A DNA stretch of 32,000 nt from Patescibacteria group bacterium. Lineage in GTDB: Bacteria; Patescibacteriota; Minisyncoccia; UBA6257; HR35. The notes below the pieces were generated by a model. The model had not been told where the DNA came from. It made no database searches and worked only from the letters and a program-made list of their open reading frames with translations. The stretch lies in the NCBI GenBank assembly GCA_023480925.1, contig JAMCWY010000003.1:13104-45103 (forward strand), in the 5' to 3' direction. A program made the position numbers and the translations under genes. Shown here one piece after another: positions 8,616-24,138 of the stretch (position 1 is the first letter of the stretch; the number at the start of each line of letters is the position of its first letter).

Positions 8616-9029
8616 TTAAGATAGACCCAATTTTTTCGCCACGTTCGGATCAAGATCGGTCGTAAAGTATGATCGGAGTTCTTCCGGTTTAACCCATTTG
8701 ATTTTTTCTATTTCATCTGTTTCTTGCGGTTTCTGGATCTGATTACTTTTTTCTAAATTACAAATAAAATAACAAATAATTTTTGTAAATTGGGGGTGGA
8801 TTCTTAAAGAAATCTGTTTGACCGCTTTGATCTTATAGCCAGTTTCAGCCAAAATTTCTCTTTCAACTGTTTTTGCTCTTGTTTCACCCGCTTCTTGCTT
8901 TCCGCCCGGGAAAACCCAAGTAAGCGGTGCTCCGTCTTTTCCTTTTTCGACAACCTTTCTTTTGACAATTAAAACTTCGCCATTTTTATTTCTAACTATG
9001 CCAAGATTGACGAGGTTGGTTTCTGCCAT
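8616..9029 (-). CDS. NUDIX hydrolase.
   Basis: The Nudix box is GGKQEAGETRAKTVEREILAETG. Confidence 0.85.
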   Translation of the reverse strand: MAETNLVNLGIVRNKNGEVLIVKRKVVEKGKDGAPLTWVFPGGKQEAGETRAKTVEREILAETGYKIKAVKQISLRIHPQFTKIICYFICNLEKSNQIQKPQETDEIEKIKWVKPEELRSYFTTDLDPNVAKKLGLS

Positions 9030-16895: not shown

Positions 16896-18635
16896 TTAAA
16901 TCAATCGGTAACTAATTTCTTTGATGACTTTGATATTTTTTAGTTTGATCAAAATTTTTTCCGTTTTTTCTTTATTATCGAAATTGATCTTAATTTTTAT
17001 TTGGGCGAAATGACCGTTTGGGTTTGAGTGGATTTCTTTGATGTTGGTTTTGGTTTGGGCGATGATGTCGGAAATGTTTTTAATCAAGTTAATTTTGTCT
17101 TCGGCCAGGATTTTTATCTCAGCCAGCCGTTCGCGTTTGAATGGATCGTCTTGGCGAAGCTTGTTTCTGATTTTCTTTTTAGCTCGGTCGGTTTTGATAA
17201 AACGAATCCAGGATTCCGATGGCCGCCGCGTTTTTTGAGTCAAAATTTCAACAATATCGCCGGATTGGAGAATTTGATCGAGATTGACGATTTTGTCGTT
17301 GACCCGGGCGCCGACGCAGTGGTTGCCGATTTCGGTGTGAACGGCGTAAGCGAAATCGATTGGCGTTGACCCAGCCGGCAGATCGAAAACTTCGCCCTTG
17401 GGCGTGATCGTAAAAATTCTGTCTTTAAAAAAATCAATTTTAAGCGATTGGAGAAAATCATCTTGGCTGTCAAATTTATTTTGCCAATTTTTCAATTGTT
17501 CAATCCAATTTAACTCTTTCCGGTCGGCAAAAATCGTTTTGGCTTTTAAATAATTTTTGCTTTGTTTCGCTTGGCTATAAAACCAGTAAGCGGCAATACC
17601 GTTTTCATTTTCTTCGTGCATCTCGAGCGTTCGAATTTGAAATTCGGTTGGTTTGTTTTCTTCGCAGATGACGGTCGTGTGAATGCTGCGATAGCCGTTT
17701 GGTTTGGGCAGGGCGATGTAGTCTTTAATCCGGCCGGGCAGAGGCGGCCAAAGTTTGTGGATAAAACCAAGAACGGCATAACACTCTTCGACTGTCTGAA
17801 CGATAATTCGAACCGCGACTAAATCGTAAACTTGGCTAAGGTCCATATCGTAACGGAGAATTTTTTTGTAAAGACTGGCGTAACGTTTGGCTCGAGTATC
17901 GATTCGGATTGGTTTGATTTTATTCTTTTCCAATTCCGTCCCGATTATCTTTTTGACATTTTCAAGGTATCTTTCTCGTTCTTGAAATTTTTCTTTGACA
18001 TTTTCTTTCAACCATTTGGACTCGGTTGGGTGAAGATAGGGGAAGGCGAGATCGTCGAGTTCGCCGGCCAGGTTACTCATACCCAGACGGTAGGCGAGAG
18101 GCGAATAAATTTCGTTTGTTTCAAGAGCGATTCGTTTTTGTTTGTTTGGCGCCAGAGCATTGAGGGTTTTGAGATTGTGGAGCCGGTCGGCCAGCTTAAT
18201 GAAGACGACGCGAATGTCTTCGCTCATGGCCAAAATCATTTTTTTTAAAGTTTCGATCTGAGCTTGGTTGCCGCGGTATTTGATTCGGCTGATCTTAGTC
18301 ACGCCATCGACAAGAAAAGCGATCTCATCGCCGAATTCTTTTTTAATCCGTTCCAAAGAAATGTCGGTGTCTTCGACGACGTCGTGTAAGAGCGCGGCGG
18401 CGGCAGTGGCCAAGTCTAACTGCCACTGGCTAATCTTTAAAGCGGTCTGGAAGGCGTGGTTGAAATAAGGTTCGCCCGATTTTCTTTTTTGGCCACGGTG
18501 GGCTTCTTGGCTGAAGGTGAAAGCTTTTTTAATTAATTCCAATTCCGTTTCATTTAATTGGCAATATTTCTTGATCGCGCCAATCAATTCTTGAAACTGG
18601 TTTGAATTTATTTTTCCATCTATTTTGGCCGTCAT
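16896..18635 (-). CDS. Bifunctional RelA/SpoT-family (p)ppGpp synthetase/hydrolase, compact form of 579 aa.
   Basis: It has an HD hydrolase domain (HRGQKRKSGEPYFNH...LLHDVVEDT), a synthetase core (YDLVAVRIIV, GYRSIHTTV, EFQIRTLEMH), a TGS domain (ITPKGEVFDLPAGSTPIDFAYAVHTEIG) and an ACT-like tail. Confidence 0.9.
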   Translation of the reverse strand: MTAKIDGKINSNQFQELIGAIKKYCQLNETELELIKKAFTFSQEAHRGQKRKSGEPYFNHAFQTALKISQWQLDLATAAAALLHDVVEDTDISLERIKKEFGDEIAFLVDGVTKISRIKYRGNQAQIETLKKMILAMSEDIRVVFIKLADRLHNLKTLNALAPNKQKRIALETNEIYSPLAYRLGMSNLAGELDDLAFPYLHPTESKWLKENVKEKFQERERYLENVKKIIGTELEKNKIKPIRIDTRAKRYASLYKKILRYDMDLSQVYDLVAVRIIVQTVEECYAVLGFIHKLWPPLPGRIKDYIALPKPNGYRSIHTTVICEENKPTEFQIRTLEMHEENENGIAAYWFYSQAKQSKNYLKAKTIFADRKELNWIEQLKNWQNKFDSQDDFLQSLKIDFFKDRIFTITPKGEVFDLPAGSTPIDFAYAVHTEIGNHCVGARVNDKIVNLDQILQSGDIVEILTQKTRRPSESWIRFIKTDRAKKKIRNKLRQDDPFKRERLAEIKILAEDKINLIKNISDIIAQTKTNIKEIHSNPNGHFAQIKIKINFDNKEKTEKILIKLKNIKVIKEISYRLI

Positions 18636-20109: not shown

Positions 20110-20171
20110 TTCAATATTTGGTCAATCTTATTTTTGTCTTGAAATAAAAAATATTATTTTGGGTGGAGATG

Positions 20172-20199
20172 TTGAGAATTAAAATAATCAGATTATAAT
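20172..20199 (+). promoter_or_regulatory. Sigma70-type promoter for tRNA-Lys.
   Basis: TTGAGA (20172-20177) is separated by a 16-nt spacer from TATAAT (20194-20199). The -10 ends 9 nt before the mature tRNA 5' end. Confidence 0.5.
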
Positions 20200-20208
20200 A
20201 AAAATATC

Positions 20209-20281
20209 GCCCCCATAGCTCAATTGGCAGAGCAACAGCCTTTTAAGCTGGTGGTTGGAGGTTCGATTCCCCCTGGGGGCA
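20209..20281 (+). tRNA. tRNA-Lys (anticodon UUU), no encoded CCA.
   Basis: A hand-folded cloverleaf gives acceptor GCCCCCA/TGGGGGC, D arm GCTC/GAGC, anticodon stem ACAGC/GCTGG with loop CTTTTAA, a T arm with TTCGATT and discriminator A. Total length is 73 nt. Confidence 0.9.
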
Positions 20282-20282
20282 C

Positions 20283-20330
20283 AAAAACAGAACTCAACGT
20301 CTTTTTTAAAGCCGTTGAGTTCTGTTTTTG
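20283..20330 (+). terminator. Strong intrinsic terminator after tRNA-Lys.
   Basis: AAAAACAGAACTCAACG (20283-20299) pairs perfectly with CGTTGAGTTCTGTTTTT (20313-20329), followed by a T-run. Confidence 0.85.
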
Positions 20331-20375
20331 TGTATTTATTGTACTAAATTAGAACCTATTCTCAAAATCGGTGAA

Positions 20376-20800
20376 TGAATCAGCTCCACCACCGCTTCGC
20401 TCCGCTCGGCAACCTCGAAAGAAAAACACCCTTTCCTTTTTCATAAAAAATCGGGCGCGCGCAAATCAGAAATACAACAAGGAGTGTTTTTCTTTCGGGG
20501 GGGTCTGCCCTCTAAGTATTCGGGCAGTGCGACGGGGCTACAATGCGGGCGAGGCAAAGCAAAACTATTTTTGCGGGAGGAATACTCTTGGCGGAATTTA
20601 AAATGTCTTGGCGGGACTTGGCGGAAACGGGAACCCGAGCCAGCACAAAAGGCGTGGGCGAAGTCAATCTTTCTTCGAATTCAGAATTGTTGTCATTATG
20701 CCAAAAAGTTTGGACTTATTTCCAGTAGAATCCCAACTGATGCGCCACGCACGGAACGGAGCGCGCGGGGGAGAGGTTTGGGGAGGAATCCGTGCGGTCT
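20376..20800 (+). ncRNA. Candidate structured non-coding RNA or regulatory island of unknown family.
   Basis: My hand count of 20401-20820 gives about 50% G+C, with G in excess on the + strand. There is no credible ORF. Long-range complementary segments include a 17-bp helix between 20413-20429 and 20484-20500. The strand is assigned only from one G-U pair. See findings. Confidence 0.3.
20587..20624 (+). repeat. Three direct copies of CTTGGCGG with helical phasing.
   Basis: Copies lie at 20587-20594, 20607-20614 and 20617-20624. Start-to-start spacing is 20 nt and 10 nt. Confidence 0.8.
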
Positions 20801-20830
20801 TTCTGTTGGATTTTTTCAGTGGGGAGGGAG

Positions 20831-20839
20831 TGGTATAAT
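20831..20839 (+). promoter_or_regulatory. Extended -10 promoter element (TGgTATAAT) for the surface-protein operon.
   Basis: TG lies at 20831-20832 and TATAAT at 20834-20839, preceded by a T-run at 20811-20816. The first ATG downstream is at 20853. Confidence 0.5.
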
Positions 20840-20852
20840 GCTTGTATAAGAT

Positions 20853-20912
20853 ATGTATCTAAACTTTAGCCAAAACCAAGCGCGACACAAGAGAGAGAGA
20901 GAGAGAGAGTAA
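20853..20912 (+). CDS. A 19-codon ATG-initiated leader ORF that contains the (AG)10 tract. It is probably the out-of-frame 5' end of the downstream surface-protein gene.
   Basis: From ATG 20853 it encodes MYLNFSQNQARHKRERERE and stops at TAA 20910-20912. Removing 2 nt in the AG tract fuses it in frame to the ORF that is open from 20870 through 23704. Confidence 0.4.
   Translation: MYLNFSQNQARHKRERERE
20890..20909 (+). repeat. Perfect (AG)10 dinucleotide microsatellite.
   Basis: Read directly from the sequence as aGAGAGAGAGAGAGAGAGAGt. Confidence 0.95.
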
Positions 20913-20959
20913 AACGAGCCCGCAGGGTTTGCTTTAACGCCAAGCAATCTTTTGAGCTA

Positions 20960-23704
20960 TTGGTCATAGCCAGTTTTCTTTTGTTTCTTTCTTCTCTTTT
21001 ACCGCAAAAGGCGCAGGCTGCTAACTCGTGGCTTGGGAACTGGCAATATCGCGAACAAATTACTTTTAACAATTCTTCTTCAACCGAGAATTTGGTTAAT
21101 TTTCCGGTACTGGTCAAACTTGATTCAACCAGAATCAATTACGCCAATACTCAAAACGCGGGCCAAGACATCAGATTTACCGACTCTGACGGAACAACAC
21201 TTTTACCTTATGAAATAGAAAAATGGGATAGCACAGGTACCTCTACTATCTGGGTCGAAATTCCTCAAATAAATGCTTCTTCAAGCACGGATTATATCTA
21301 TATGTACTATGGCAACACCTCTGCCATAGATGGCCAAAATAAAACTGCGGTGTGGAATTCAAATTATGTCTTGGTTCAGCACTTAGGAGAAACATCCGGT
21401 ACCACAACATTTGATTCAACTGCTAATGCAAATAATGGTACAAAAGTTTCGGCTACCGACCCAAATCCTTCTTCATTGGGACAGATAGACGGGGCTCAAA
21501 GTTTCAATGGAGTAAACGATTTTATAAAAATTGACAACAATGCAAATATTGACAACATTACAGTAATAACTGTTAGCGCATGGGTGAAGACTAACAATAC
21601 AACTAGCCAAGCTATTTGGACATCGTATGGAGCACCACATGGATATCAACTTTGGTTGCAAGCGGGACAGGTAGCTATGTGGAGTGACAGCGGAACGGTA
21701 AATTCAGGTGTTTTTGTGGCTGATGGACAATGGCATTATATAGTCGGAGTTTTCGATGGTACAAATGTGTATATTTATGTTGATGGTACACAAAGAGCTT
21801 CCGGCGCAGGAACAGTCACAGCGAATACCGGAAACAATCAAATTGGAAACCAATGTGTTGGTGCAGGATATACTTCCTGCTCTTTGTACATGAACGGCCT
21901 AATTGATGAGCTTCATATCTCAAACACTGTCCGTTCAGCCGCTTGGATTGCGGCAAGTTATAAATCAGAAACAGATAATTTTAACACTTTTGGCGCTGAA
22001 GAATTAAGGCCAAACTCTCCGCCAAACACACCGATTAATTCTTCGCCTACGAATGGTGCCACTCTCCAATTACTTACTCCGACTTTAACCGCATCGGCGT
22101 TTTCCGATCCGGACGCAAGCGATACTAATGCGGCAAGCAACTGGCAGGTTGACGACAACTCTAATTTTCTTTTCCCGGAATGGACGCGAACCAGCACAAG
22201 CGGCGAAACATCCACCACGGTCAATGCCGCCAACGGTGTTTTTGCCAACAGCTTAGCCGGGAAAAGCGAACTGGCGCATAACACGGTTTATTACTGGCGG
22301 GTGCGCTACCAAGATTCGTCTGGTGCGCTTAATAGCTGGTCGTCATATTCAACTAGTACTACCTTCACCACCAATCTTATACATACGCCGACCAATTCCT
22401 CGCCGGCAAATGGTATAACGATTACTACCTTGACTCCAACGCTTTCCGCCTCGGCTTTTTCCGATGATGAACCAGGGCATACGCAAAGCGCGAGCGAATG
22501 GCAAATTGATAATGATATAAATTTTGCCAGTCCTGAATATGATTCCGGCGCCACATCTAGTCTTACCTCGCTAACAGTTCCTTCCGGAGCACTACTTAAC
22601 GGTTCTCATTATTTCCAGGTTCGATATCAGGATTCCGGAGGCCAATGGTCTTCTTATTCTGCTCCTACCTCGTTTTATATTGACACTGATACCGGAGAAT
22701 ATCTCCTGCAGCCAGTTGGCTGGAATCAAACTTACAATCTCGGCGACACGGCGCGTTTTACTCTTCAAGTGCTTGCGAGAGATGCAAATGGCGGATTTGA
22801 TCCAGTAACTCCGGACAGCATACCAATCTGGCGTTTGCGCTATTGGGACGGCGCCACTTGGCAGGAATTGGTTTCGGCAACTAGTATGACTCCTCTTGCC
22901 GCGTCGAGCACTTATGAAGCGACCTATGTCATCCCCAGCGATGCTGCTTGGACTGGCAGGGAAGTAACGCCGATGTTCTACGCGACCGTAAACGACGTGC
23001 CGACATCATTGACGCGTGAAATTGAAATTGTCAGTTCCCCGGCGCAAGTGGTGATTAATAACATCACTAACAATACTGTTCCTAATATCACCGCTAATAT
23101 TACAATTACAAACGAAGGCACCGCCGCTTTTGAATACACCTACGACTATTGCGTTGTTGTTTCTATTATTGACCAGTGTGGCGGCGCTGGTAACATCGCT
23201 TACAGTTCAGCGGCTAAATTAATCCAGCCGAGTCAAAACTTTATTACCAATCTAACGCTCAATGTGCCAAATCCAGGCAATTATTTTTTTAAAACCTCGG
23301 TTTGGTGGTCAAATAAAAGTTCAAACGCAAGCCGGTCTTTTACGGCGGCCGCGGCGGCTACTTCTAGTCCTTCTTCGAATAGTAGCTCCGTCGGTGGGGG
23401 CGGAGGCGGCGGCGGAACCGTTTGGAGCGGCAATTTGACGGCATCTAGCTCCAGCCAGGTGACTAATTCAGCCGGTTCAACTAATTCGTCTTTTGTCGCC
23501 GTCTGGGAAGCGATCTACACTTTTTCTCAACGTTTAAATAGGCTTGAAAACCGCGTTGATGTTCTTGAAAGCAAGATAAAAAAATTGGAAAATATCAATC
23601 AGTCAAATTATTCTTCGGTTTATCAACCGCAACCAAGTTATGTCCCGTCGTCTCAACCAACTCTGCCCAAGATCAATCATATATTTAGAATTAGACTGAA
23701 TTAG
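20960..23704 (+). CDS. Large secreted surface protein. Its parts are a signal peptide, DUF2341-like and LamG/concanavalin-like domains, two Fn3-like modules, a beta-rich region, a Ser/Ala/Gly linker with a G8 run, and a coiled-coil tail.
   Basis: With TTG 20960 the N-terminus is MVIASFLLFLSSLLPQKAQA/ANSW. The DUF2341-type pattern is WQYREQITFNN...NFPVLVKL...DIRFTD.DGT.LPYEIEKWD...IWVEIP...IYMYYGN. The LamG pattern is DGQWHYIVGVFDG.NVYIYVDG...GLIDELHISN..RSAAWI. The true start may be ATG 20853 after AG-tract slippage. Confidence 0.75.
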   Translation: MVIASFLLFLSSLLPQKAQAANSWLGNWQYREQITFNNSSSTENLVNFPVLVKLDSTRINYANTQNAGQDIRFTDSDGTTLLPYEIEKWDSTGTSTIWVEIPQINASSSTDYIYMYYGNTSAIDGQNKTAVWNSNYVLVQHLGETSGTTTFDSTANANNGTKVSATDPNPSSLGQIDGAQSFNGVNDFIKIDNNANIDNITVITVSAWVKTNNTTSQAIWTSYGAPHGYQLWLQAGQVAMWSDSGTVNSGVFVADGQWHYIVGVFDGTNVYIYVDGTQRASGAGTVTANTGNNQIGNQCVGAGYTSCSLYMNGLIDELHISNTVRSAAWIAASYKSETDNFNTFGAEELRPNSPPNTPINSSPTNGATLQLLTPTLTASAFSDPDASDTNAASNWQVDDNSNFLFPEWTRTSTSGETSTTVNAANGVFANSLAGKSELAHNTVYYWRVRYQDSSGALNSWSSYSTSTTFTTNLIHTPTNSSPANGITITTLTPTLSASAFSDDEPGHTQSASEWQIDNDINFASPEYDSGATSSLTSLTVPSGALLNGSHYFQVRYQDSGGQWSSYSAPTSFYIDTDTGEYLLQPVGWNQTYNLGDTARFTLQVLARDANGGFDPVTPDSIPIWRLRYWDGATWQELVSATSMTPLAASSTYEATYVIPSDAAWTGREVTPMFYATVNDVPTSLTREIEIVSSPAQVVINNITNNTVPNITANITITNEGTAAFEYTYDYCVVVSIIDQCGGAGNIAYSSAAKLIQPSQNFITNLTLNVPNPGNYFFKTSVWWSNKSSNASRSFTAAAAATSSPSSNSSSVGGGGGGGGTVWSGNLTASSSSQVTNSAGSTNSSFVAVWEAIYTFSQRLNRLENRVDVLESKIKKLENINQSNYSSVYQPQPSYVPSSQPTLPKINHIFRIRLN
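22028..22680 (+). repeat. Tandem duplication of an Fn3/Ig-like module inside the surface-protein CDS.
   Basis: Unit 1 starts TPINSSPTNGATLQLLTPTLTASAFSD...YYWRVRYQDSSG..NSWSSYS. Unit 2, starting at 22385, reads TPTNSSPANGITITTLTPTLSASAFSD...HYFQVRYQDSGGQWSSYS. The repeat is diverged at the DNA level. Confidence 0.65.
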
Positions 23705-23706
23705 AG

Positions 23707-24138
23707 ATGAAAAAATTTATCGGTTCAGTTTTTAAACTAAAATTAAACGATGTCGTTATTTTGTTTTTATTGTTTGCGTTGGTTCTAAGTAATTTGATTT
23801 TGACTATTCAGGTTTTTGAAAATTTAAATGAAATTAAATTCATTCAGGCGAACTTGAATCAAGTTAAAAAAAATAACCAGATTTTAGAATTCGATCGGAT
23901 TCGAGTTGAAGACGCGGCCAATATTCTTTTGGCGATTCAGGATTATTACTACTCGAATCAGGCCTTTCCTAATAATCTCGAAGAATTAAAAAAACAAGGC
24001 TACCTTGATTCAAAAGCGGAGTTATCAGATCCTCAAACGCACAAATATTATTTTTATAAAAATCGCGGTAACGATTTTGTCTTTTGCGTTTGGTTGTCCG
24101 ACAAAGTTAAGGGCGTTAACGTCAGCGCTTGTCACTAA
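23707..24138 (+). CDS. Membrane-anchored protein with a type IV pilin/pseudopilin-like globular domain.
   Basis: It has an N-terminal TM helix (VVILFLLFALVLSNLILTI). The following AANILLAIQDYYYSNQAFPNNLEEL...LSDPQTHKYYFYK...FVFCVWL matches the common pilin-fold pattern (YP..L..L....DP....Y.Y). No G/FTLIE prepilin cleavage motif is present. It starts 3 nt after the upstream stop. Confidence 0.5.
   Translation: MKKFIGSVFKLKLNDVVILFLLFALVLSNLILTIQVFENLNEIKFIQANLNQVKKNNQILEFDRIRVEDAANILLAIQDYYYSNQAFPNNLEELKKQGYLDSKAELSDPQTHKYYFYKNRGNDFVFCVWLSDKVKGVNVSACH

Follow-up and report, generated by a model that had tools for sequence, protein, structure and literature searches.

A window of 32,000 nucleotides (nt) from a Patescibacteria group bacterium (GenBank assembly GCA_023480925.1, contig JAMCWY010000003.1, positions 13,104 to 45,103 of the forward strand) contains a gene for a large DUF2341/LamG protein whose 5' end carries a perfect (AG)10 tract. 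We consider it probable (approximately 0.7) that this locus is a slipped-strand contingency gene (i.e., a phase-variable gene) that was OFF in the genotype sequenced. A preliminary description of this DNA had proposed such a switch caught OFF, and our results supported that proposal in part. The anatomy of the locus, its frame arithmetic, the recurrence of tracts at the same site across the family, their length polymorphism, and the mixture of ON and OFF alleles with intact bodies were all observed directly. At the family level, phase variation gains strong comparative support; at the window locus, where tract length did not vary, it is unproven.

The leader, tract, and start codons were read in window positions 20500 to 21300, and the coding region was characterized using Pfam and homologues. 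The resulting features are as follows.

20831 to 20839, + strand: extended -10-like element (TGgTATAAT), read directly, without a recognizable -35; putative promoter of the leader
20853 to 20912, + strand: leader open reading frame (ORF), MYLNFSQNQARHKRERERE, 19 codons, opened by ATG 20853 and closed by TAA 20910-20912
20870 to 20959, + strand: open stretch in the body frame, without a start codon, 5' of TTG 20960; encodes ...ERERERVKRARRVCFNAKQSFELL
20890 to 20909, + strand: perfect (AG)10 tract, detected by Tandem Repeats Finder; proposed slipped-strand switch
20960 to 21019, + strand: hydrophobic (h-) and c-regions of a signal peptide, VIASFLLFLSSLLPQKAQA, located by a simple hydrophobicity heuristic, with a probable AxA site before ANSW predicted by the -3/-1 rule
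20960 to 23704, + strand: intact body ORF of 914 codons with DUF2341, Laminin_G_3 (LamG jelly-roll), Ig-like repeats, and a coiled-coil-like C-terminal tail, from Pfam and homologues

The -10-like element, ATG 20853, the 19-codon ORF, its TAA, and the tract had all been given in the preliminary description, and direct reading confirmed each of them. The same was true of the position of the 914-codon ORF in the +2 frame relative to ATG 20853 and of the lack of any ATG, GTG, or TTG in that frame until TTG 20960. The body frame is open from 20870, just past a TAG at 20867-69, and (AG)10 begins 37 nt after ATG 20853. At the present tract length (OFF), no in-frame start other than TTG 20960 is on offer.

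The tract is the sole long simple repeat of the window, in which the runner-up dinucleotide repeat has 4 units. Repeats of (AG)6 or longer occurred in 0 of 100 dinucleotide-preserving shuffles; (AG)10 is over-represented relative to this background and is not a product of chance. With a unit size of 2 nt and a position between the start codon and the body, the number of units toggles between a full-length product and an early stop. Among the simulated tract lengths, translation from ATG 20853 yielded 947, 949, and 951 amino acids (aa) at n = 6, 9, and 12, respectively, and peptides of 17 to 30 aa at the other values of n. The simulation also bore out the earlier statement that the loss of one AG (n = 9) or the gain of two (n = 12) fuses ATG 20853 to the body.

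The large protein had 277 homologues at an E value of ≤1e-10 and is named by NCBI as a LamG or DUF2341 domain-containing protein. The only Pfam families found in it were DUF2341 (PF10102; 59.1 bits; Pfam gathering cut-off, 23.4), Laminin_G_3 (PF13385; 77.6 bits; cut-off, 27.6), and Ig_Rha78A_N. With both of the first two domains above their gathering scores, its sequence places it among the large secreted DUF2341/LamG proteins of Patescibacteria. The label of adhesin is one that its domain content alone would suggest. An in-frame glycine-coding repeat was also observed in the C-terminal linker (G8 at window positions ~23393-23416; (GGC)7 at positions 2886-2906 of a related locus, L091). This repeat is a possible length-variable spacer, separate from the ON/OFF switch.

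The starts of the neighboring genes helped to gauge the two candidate start codons. A Shine-Dalgarno (SD) motif was present in 0 of ~30 window genes, whose starts are ATG codons preceded by A/T-rich sequence (e.g., 8616-9029 on the minus strand, 10595, and 16896-18635 on the minus strand). The missing SD at TTG 20960 is uninformative because no gene in the window has one, and the argument against this codon that the preliminary description had drawn from it is void. The context of ATG 20853 (...tgtataagatATG) is A/T-rich like those of other gene starts in the window; that of TTG 20960 (...cttttgagctaTTG) is without the typical A/T-rich upstream sequence. The 13 nt from the -10-like element to ATG 20853 suggest that a short leader of ~6 to 7 nt is more likely than a strictly leaderless mRNA. 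Several other starts in the window have a TATAAT ending 7 to 9 nt 5' of the ATG, a placement that hints at widespread leaderless or very-short-leader mRNAs in this organism.

The predicted signal peptides of the two phases were compared with those of 94 homologues using a simple hydrophobicity scan. At least one basic residue preceded the h-region in 91 of the 94, and two or more did so in 85. The N-terminus initiated at TTG 20960 (MVIASFLLFL...) contains zero K/R, as the preliminary description had noted when it called this signal peptide devoid of a charged n-region. The ON-phase N-terminus has ten K/R within a 34-residue n-region. In-frame homologues contain ...ERERESKRLRRFV..., which has the same layout as ...ERERER-VKRARRVCF... 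of the window; by this likeness, the start-less stretch ...ERERERVKRARRVCFNAKQSFELL may form the basic n-region of the ON-phase signal peptide. The starts called on this one identical sequence (records P0001, P0121, and P0122; window 20960-23704) differ, comprising an internal Met (800 aa, NCBI), TTG 20960 (NCBI, GCA_023381135.1), and TTG 20981 (a contig from Logan). OFF-phase alleles of the family are systematically truncated in protein databases.

Related genes were surveyed at two levels, namely, the N-termini of the 120 best homologous proteins (P numbers) and 160 DNA loci (L numbers; 80 from species-representative genomes and 80 from metagenomes) fetched with conserved peptides located 3' of the signal peptide. 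At the protein level, many homologues translate a tract in frame inside the n-region of the signal peptide. An in-frame ...GAN(ER)nSKRLRRFV... (e.g., ...GAN-ERERERE-SKRLRRFVTTF...) was present in P0030, P0041, P0059, P0079, and P0103, with 5, 7, or 9 ER residues. Other in-frame tract translations were HTHTH (P0045) and SLTHSLTHSL (P0049 and P0105). At the DNA level, 7 of 15 repeats in the genome loci (binomial P = 1e-4) and 18 of 25 in the metagenome loci (binomial P = 1e-10) lay within -300 to +100 nt of the N-terminal match. When tracts of at least 16 nt were considered, 22 of 26 were inside the 5' signal-peptide window. The motifs at this site were (GA)6-12, (CT)8-12, (CTCA/ACTC)5-20, (CAAGA)4-9, and C24; the (CT)n of three loci (L041, L139, and L146) encodes LSLSLS inside the h-region.

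Both phases were represented among these loci. Approximately 10 were ON, with an ATG in frame through the tract (L006, L007, L085, L086, L095, L108, L111, L133, L120, and L123), and approximately 12, including the window, were OFF, with no in-frame start 5' of the tract (the others being L014, L027, L041, L089, L091, L092, L117, L128, L138, L139, and L146). At the OFF loci, the reading frame of an out-of-frame ATG enters the tract and closes after a few more codons. Their bodies continue without a stop as far as the fetched DNA extends, for 330 to 958 codons or more where the contig end was not limiting, and the lack of any other lesion in them argues against decay. In L120 (~330-350) and L123 (~1700), which are in frame at the tract, a second frameshift was observed further 3'; that of L120 is at a T-run in the h-region (T7 versus T5 in L111). 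These second frameshifts could represent a further slippery site, a decaying gene, or an error of sequencing.

Tract length differed between otherwise nearly identical sequences. L041 (a GTDB genome; (CT)11) and L146 (a Hainich-named contig; (CT)12) match at every compared position of their flanks (100% identity; 300 nt on the upstream side and 600 nt on the downstream side), and the two loci are both OFF, in different frames. L143 with (GA)10 and L144 with (GA)8 are 99.8% identical over 600 nt 3' of the tract, the upstream side being essentially uncompared given that the L143 contig starts 9 nt 5' of the tract. Seven GA-leader loci whose leaders are 89 to 96% identical have 6, 8, 9, 9, 9, 11, and 12 units. 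L089 with (GA)12 is OFF, and P0030/P0124 (93 to 96% amino-acid identity) are ON, at the length that (GA)11 would give. When the clusters of ten homologues with leaders were looked up, they yielded almost no extra members and no new length variants. Assembly gaps were observed at two tracts, in L013 (2383-2406; C24 and then Ns) and in L056 (1897-1910; (GA)6 and then NN, with ~130 nt missing); such breaks are expected if reads are heterogeneous in length there.

Many relatives carry two ATGs, 4 to 5 nt apart and in two frames (ATGATATG, ATGTATG), 5' of the tract, with leader peptides beginning MPKENAIK... or MICLKKML.... Because the two ATGs are in two frames, two of the three tract phases would initiate, and one would be OFF. 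The window locus, with its single ATG, has one ON phase in three. Such two-ATG loci include the following.

L006, 2465-2523
L007, 258-322
L086, 742-831
L092, 1496-1581
L014, 2385-2508

The 5' ends of these genes are more alike than their bodies. We compared L006, L007, L086, L089, L091, and L092 over ~120 to 230 nt 5' of the tract plus the signal peptide. The 5' cassette (i.e., upstream region, ATGs, tract, signal peptide, and SPWTQTDWSGGSGQTSW module) showed 89 to 96% DNA identity, compared with 50 to 70% protein identity for the bodies, and P0125 consists of an L089-type leader joined to an L092-type body. This mismatch between cassette and body suggests that paralogues have exchanged cassettes or undergone gene conversion. 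On balance, we lean slightly toward a joint reading in which slipped-strand contingency loci occur lineage-wide on the DUF2341/LamG surface proteins of Patescibacteria (candidate phyla radiation [CPR]). In such loci, a conserved 5' cassette (promoter, ATG or ATGs, tract, and signal peptide), perhaps exchangeable among divergent bodies, would employ at least five motifs and often a two-ATG, three-state switch.

An orphan GA cassette was also observed, consisting of an ATG, (GA)8 or (GA)10, and GTAAACGCGACTCGCCG (L144, 196-285; L143, 1-80; L153, 162-272). It lies ~500 nt 5' of a DUF2341 gene, with a 111-aa membrane-protein ORF between them, and all frames stop shortly past the tract. This cassette may have a regulatory role or may be a relic.

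Several results weigh against a contingency gene at the window locus. Further assemblies of the locus were reached via cluster members P0121 and P0122; exact-protein look-ups with the TTG-initiated product and with the 800-aa NCBI version found no contigs. GCA_023381135.1 is 100% identical to the window over 7.3 kb and carries (AG)10. So does a Logan contig from SRR10252151, which has 2 single nucleotide polymorphisms in 8 kb, both in ribosomal-protein genes. Tract length was therefore uniform (n = 10) in three assemblies of essentially one strain, and the heterogeneity to be expected from the preliminary description, sought in related assemblies, was not seen ((AG)10 in 3/3). The agreement among the three assemblies effectively rules out an assembly artefact and provides no evidence of variation at the locus. 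The 90% identity protein cluster of the large protein contains no ON-phase version, and a scan of Joint Genome Institute (JGI) metagenomes for the tract flanks with a variable gap found no match.

Comparisons beyond this strain added further points on the same side. In the nearest orthologue (P0002; 60% identity), the start is an ordinary ATG with an upstream GGAG, the n-region is basic, and the tract is lacking, so the conservation of tract and upstream ATG implied by the preliminary description did not extend to it. P0002 also lacks the leader and has a genomic neighborhood that differs from that of the window; because of the absent tract and the different context, it is unusable as a synteny test. 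The DNA likeness between the window leader and the GA-family leader is modest. Because the ranking of related loci used a GA-leader protein, the share of GA tracts was inflated; the other motifs were not favored by it. As a caveat on the putative promoter, a scan for a consensus two-hexamer promoter did not call the element at 20831-20839.

Among the alternatives, constitutive expression from TTG 20960 is the most credible, although we consider it unlikely. The AG tract and the 19-codon ORF would then be a neutral repeat in the 5' untranslated region or an upstream ORF that tunes expression. TTG 20960 directly precedes the hydrophobic core, so that its product would retain the h-region and the AQA site, and NCBI chose this codon in GCA_023381135.1; the absence of an SD, being normal in the genome of the window, is no bar to it, and the tract is identical in three assemblies. 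However, the credible starts in the window are ATGs after A/T-rich sequence, a context that this TTG lacks, and its n-region would be without the basic residue found in 91/94 homologues. In addition, the body frame is open for 30 codons 5' of TTG 20960 and encodes there a KRARR motif homologous to that of in-frame relatives, and no start of this kind lies ahead of the h-region in the other OFF relatives. A second alternative is an irreversible, one-off slippage that left a young pseudogene, the family pattern being low-complexity sequence tolerated in signal peptides plus random decay. The fixation of the OFF state across three assemblies, the second frameshift 3' of the tract in L120 and L123, and the OFF state of 3/3 CT-type loci are all compatible with such decay. 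It nevertheless appears improbable: the 914-codon body is free of other lesions, OFF relatives keep long intact ORFs, five motifs converge on one stretch of 100 to 200 nt in the gene, outside which repeats are rare, and one repeat unit separates alleles whose flanks are identical.

Recoding at the RNA level, through transcriptional slippage on the tract or +2/-1 ribosomal frameshifting on AGAGAG, would produce the full-length protein without any change in the DNA. By reasoning, a dinucleotide repeat permits perfect re-pairing of tRNA or of RNA with DNA after a 2-nt slip, and the leader ORF does terminate immediately past the tract. On the other hand, the leader region contains no slippery heptamer of the form X XXY YYZ, and its RNA fold (z = 0.30) is no more structured than those of shuffles, on which grounds we set aside a programmed ribosomal frameshift site. 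Efficient slippage is known from homopolymers; it is not known from (AG)n. Recoding also does not account for relatives in all three phases with varied tract lengths, and we regard it as very improbable. Least credible of all, and hardly to be entertained, is that n = 10 is a sequencing or assembly error and that the true genome is in frame. Repeats are prone to miscalling, and two related assemblies break at their tracts (an N-run in L013 and NN in L056), but exactly 10 units were recovered in three separately built assemblies, and a dinucleotide repeat of 20 nt is well inside the length of a short read.

If the window locus is phase variable, its expression may proceed as follows. Transcription would start a few nt 5' of ATG 20853, and ribosomes would initiate at this codon; at n = 10, (AG)10 is read as K(RE)n, and the frame stops at TAA 20910. 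Slipped-strand mispairing during replication would drop one AG or gain two, and such switching would presumably be reversible. The ATG would then be joined to the 914-codon body, as in the simulation, giving a pre-protein of ~949 aa. The signal peptide of this pre-protein would have an n-region that is long and basic (...HK(RE)nVKRARRV...), followed by the h-region VIASFLLFLSSLL and a cleavage site at AQA/A. The mature product would be a secreted or surface DUF2341/LamG/Ig-like protein, and the 143-aa gene directly downstream would probably be expressed with the large gene and be affected by the switch. Two of every three tract-length classes would be OFF.

The window contains ATP synthase genes, relA/spoT, a class II aldolase gene, and tRNA-Lys; after tRNA-Lys, the order is ~570 bp of non-coding DNA, the large gene, the 143-aa gene, and then tuf, S10, L3, and L4. 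The flanking features are as follows.

20209 to 20282, + strand: tRNA-Lys(UUU), identified by Rfam and ARAGORN
20280 to 20329: palindrome of 50 nt directly after tRNA-Lys, detected by self-BLAST
23707 to 24138, + strand: 143-aa protein with a hydrophobic N-terminal segment, starting 3 nt past the stop of the large ORF

The tRNA-Lys gene, the palindrome, and ~550 bp of unconserved non-coding DNA form the upstream boundary of the locus. BLAST and tblastx comparisons of the 570-bp upstream region with every fetched locus found no match, and Rfam searches of 20150-21050 at gathering and permissive thresholds returned the tRNA alone, with no riboswitch or known leader. The non-coding stretch (20283-20852; ~570 bp) is unusually G+C-rich and includes a G7 run at 20497-20503; it could be an insertion remnant beside the tRNA. 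The 143-aa protein matched no family in Pfam and NCBIfam searches and is 42% identical to the product of the gene directly 3' of the orthologue P0002 (L003, 6988-7470). Given the 3-nt spacing and this conserved pairing, the 143-aa gene is probably cotranscribed with the large gene.

The CPR/Patescibacteria are mostly uncultured, and their host attachment and host choice are largely obscure. A phase-variable locus in the window would mean that the DUF2341/LamG proteins and the small partner gene are under fluctuating selection, which would rank these proteins among the foremost candidates for phage receptors or for a role in host attachment. Slipped-strand phase variation would then reach from animal pathogens to environmental ultra-small bacteria. 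If the lineage-wide reading is also true, ultra-small episymbionts of groundwater may hedge their bets on attachment or on the evasion of phages or hosts, and contingency loci would exist well beyond the usual host-adapted pathogens. There would be a practical consequence as well, in that OFF alleles truncated or missed by gene callers bias protein catalogues.

A role in adhesion or host interaction has been proposed for giant DUF2341-bearing proteins of Patescibacteria (PMC11809585). In a Gracilibacterium, a gene for a probable surface protein contains a hypervariable 9-mer (PTD) repeat for which slipped-strand mispairing was invoked (Sieber et al. 2019, PMC6851277). That repeat differs from the tract described here, as its 9-nt unit is in frame and alters the length and sequence of the protein rather than acting as an ON/OFF frameshift at the start of the gene (PMC6851277). 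In the literature searched, which covered few subscription-journal papers, we found no report of repeat-driven ON/OFF switching in CPR, Patescibacteria, or Saccharibacteria. The mechanism is a textbook one; what seems not to have been reported in that literature is that it occurs in many uncultured Patescibacteria, with several motifs and two-ATG designs.

Parallel systems are known in other bacteria. In Helicobacter pylori, oipA/hopH, sabA, sabB, and hopZ have CT/AG dinucleotide repeats in the signal-peptide-coding region, and the number of units sets the frame. As in these genes, the window tract is a dinucleotide repeat just past the ATG in the signal-peptide-coding region, OFF alleles keep intact bodies, and the relatives L041, L139, and L146 use (CT)n. 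The likeness is one of mechanism and not of family, because Pfam identifies a DUF2341/LamG/Ig-like protein rather than a Hop beta-barrel. Unlike H. pylori, an animal pathogen, the organism considered here is an uncultured member of the Patescibacteria, and the related contigs include groundwater (Hainich-named) assemblies. The lic1, lic2, and lic3 loci of Haemophilus influenzae encode lipopolysaccharide (LPS)-modifying enzymes and have tetranucleotide repeats 3' of several ATGs in different frames. Relatives of the window gene resemble them in carrying (CTCA)n tetramers and two ATGs in two frames, whereas the window locus has one ATG, and its predicted product is a secreted protein and not an LPS-modifying enzyme.

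The opa genes of Neisseria, a multicopy surface-protein family, have a CTCTT pentamer repeat in the signal-peptide-coding region. Similarly, relatives of the window gene use a pentamer, (CAAGA)4-9, in signal-peptide-coding sequence and have a 5' cassette common to divergent bodies; the protein fold and the organism differ. Among Mollicutes, surface lipoproteins and adhesins (Mycoplasma vlp, vaa, vlhA, and vmm) undergo phase variation via poly-A, GAA, or TA tracts. The Mollicutes are likewise small-genome bacteria that depend on other cells and switch surface proteins by repeat tracts, although many of their switches set promoter spacing, and the phylum and the proteins differ. Given this precedent, repeat-based phase variation in reduced genomes is not new; what would be new is its presence in Patescibacteria.

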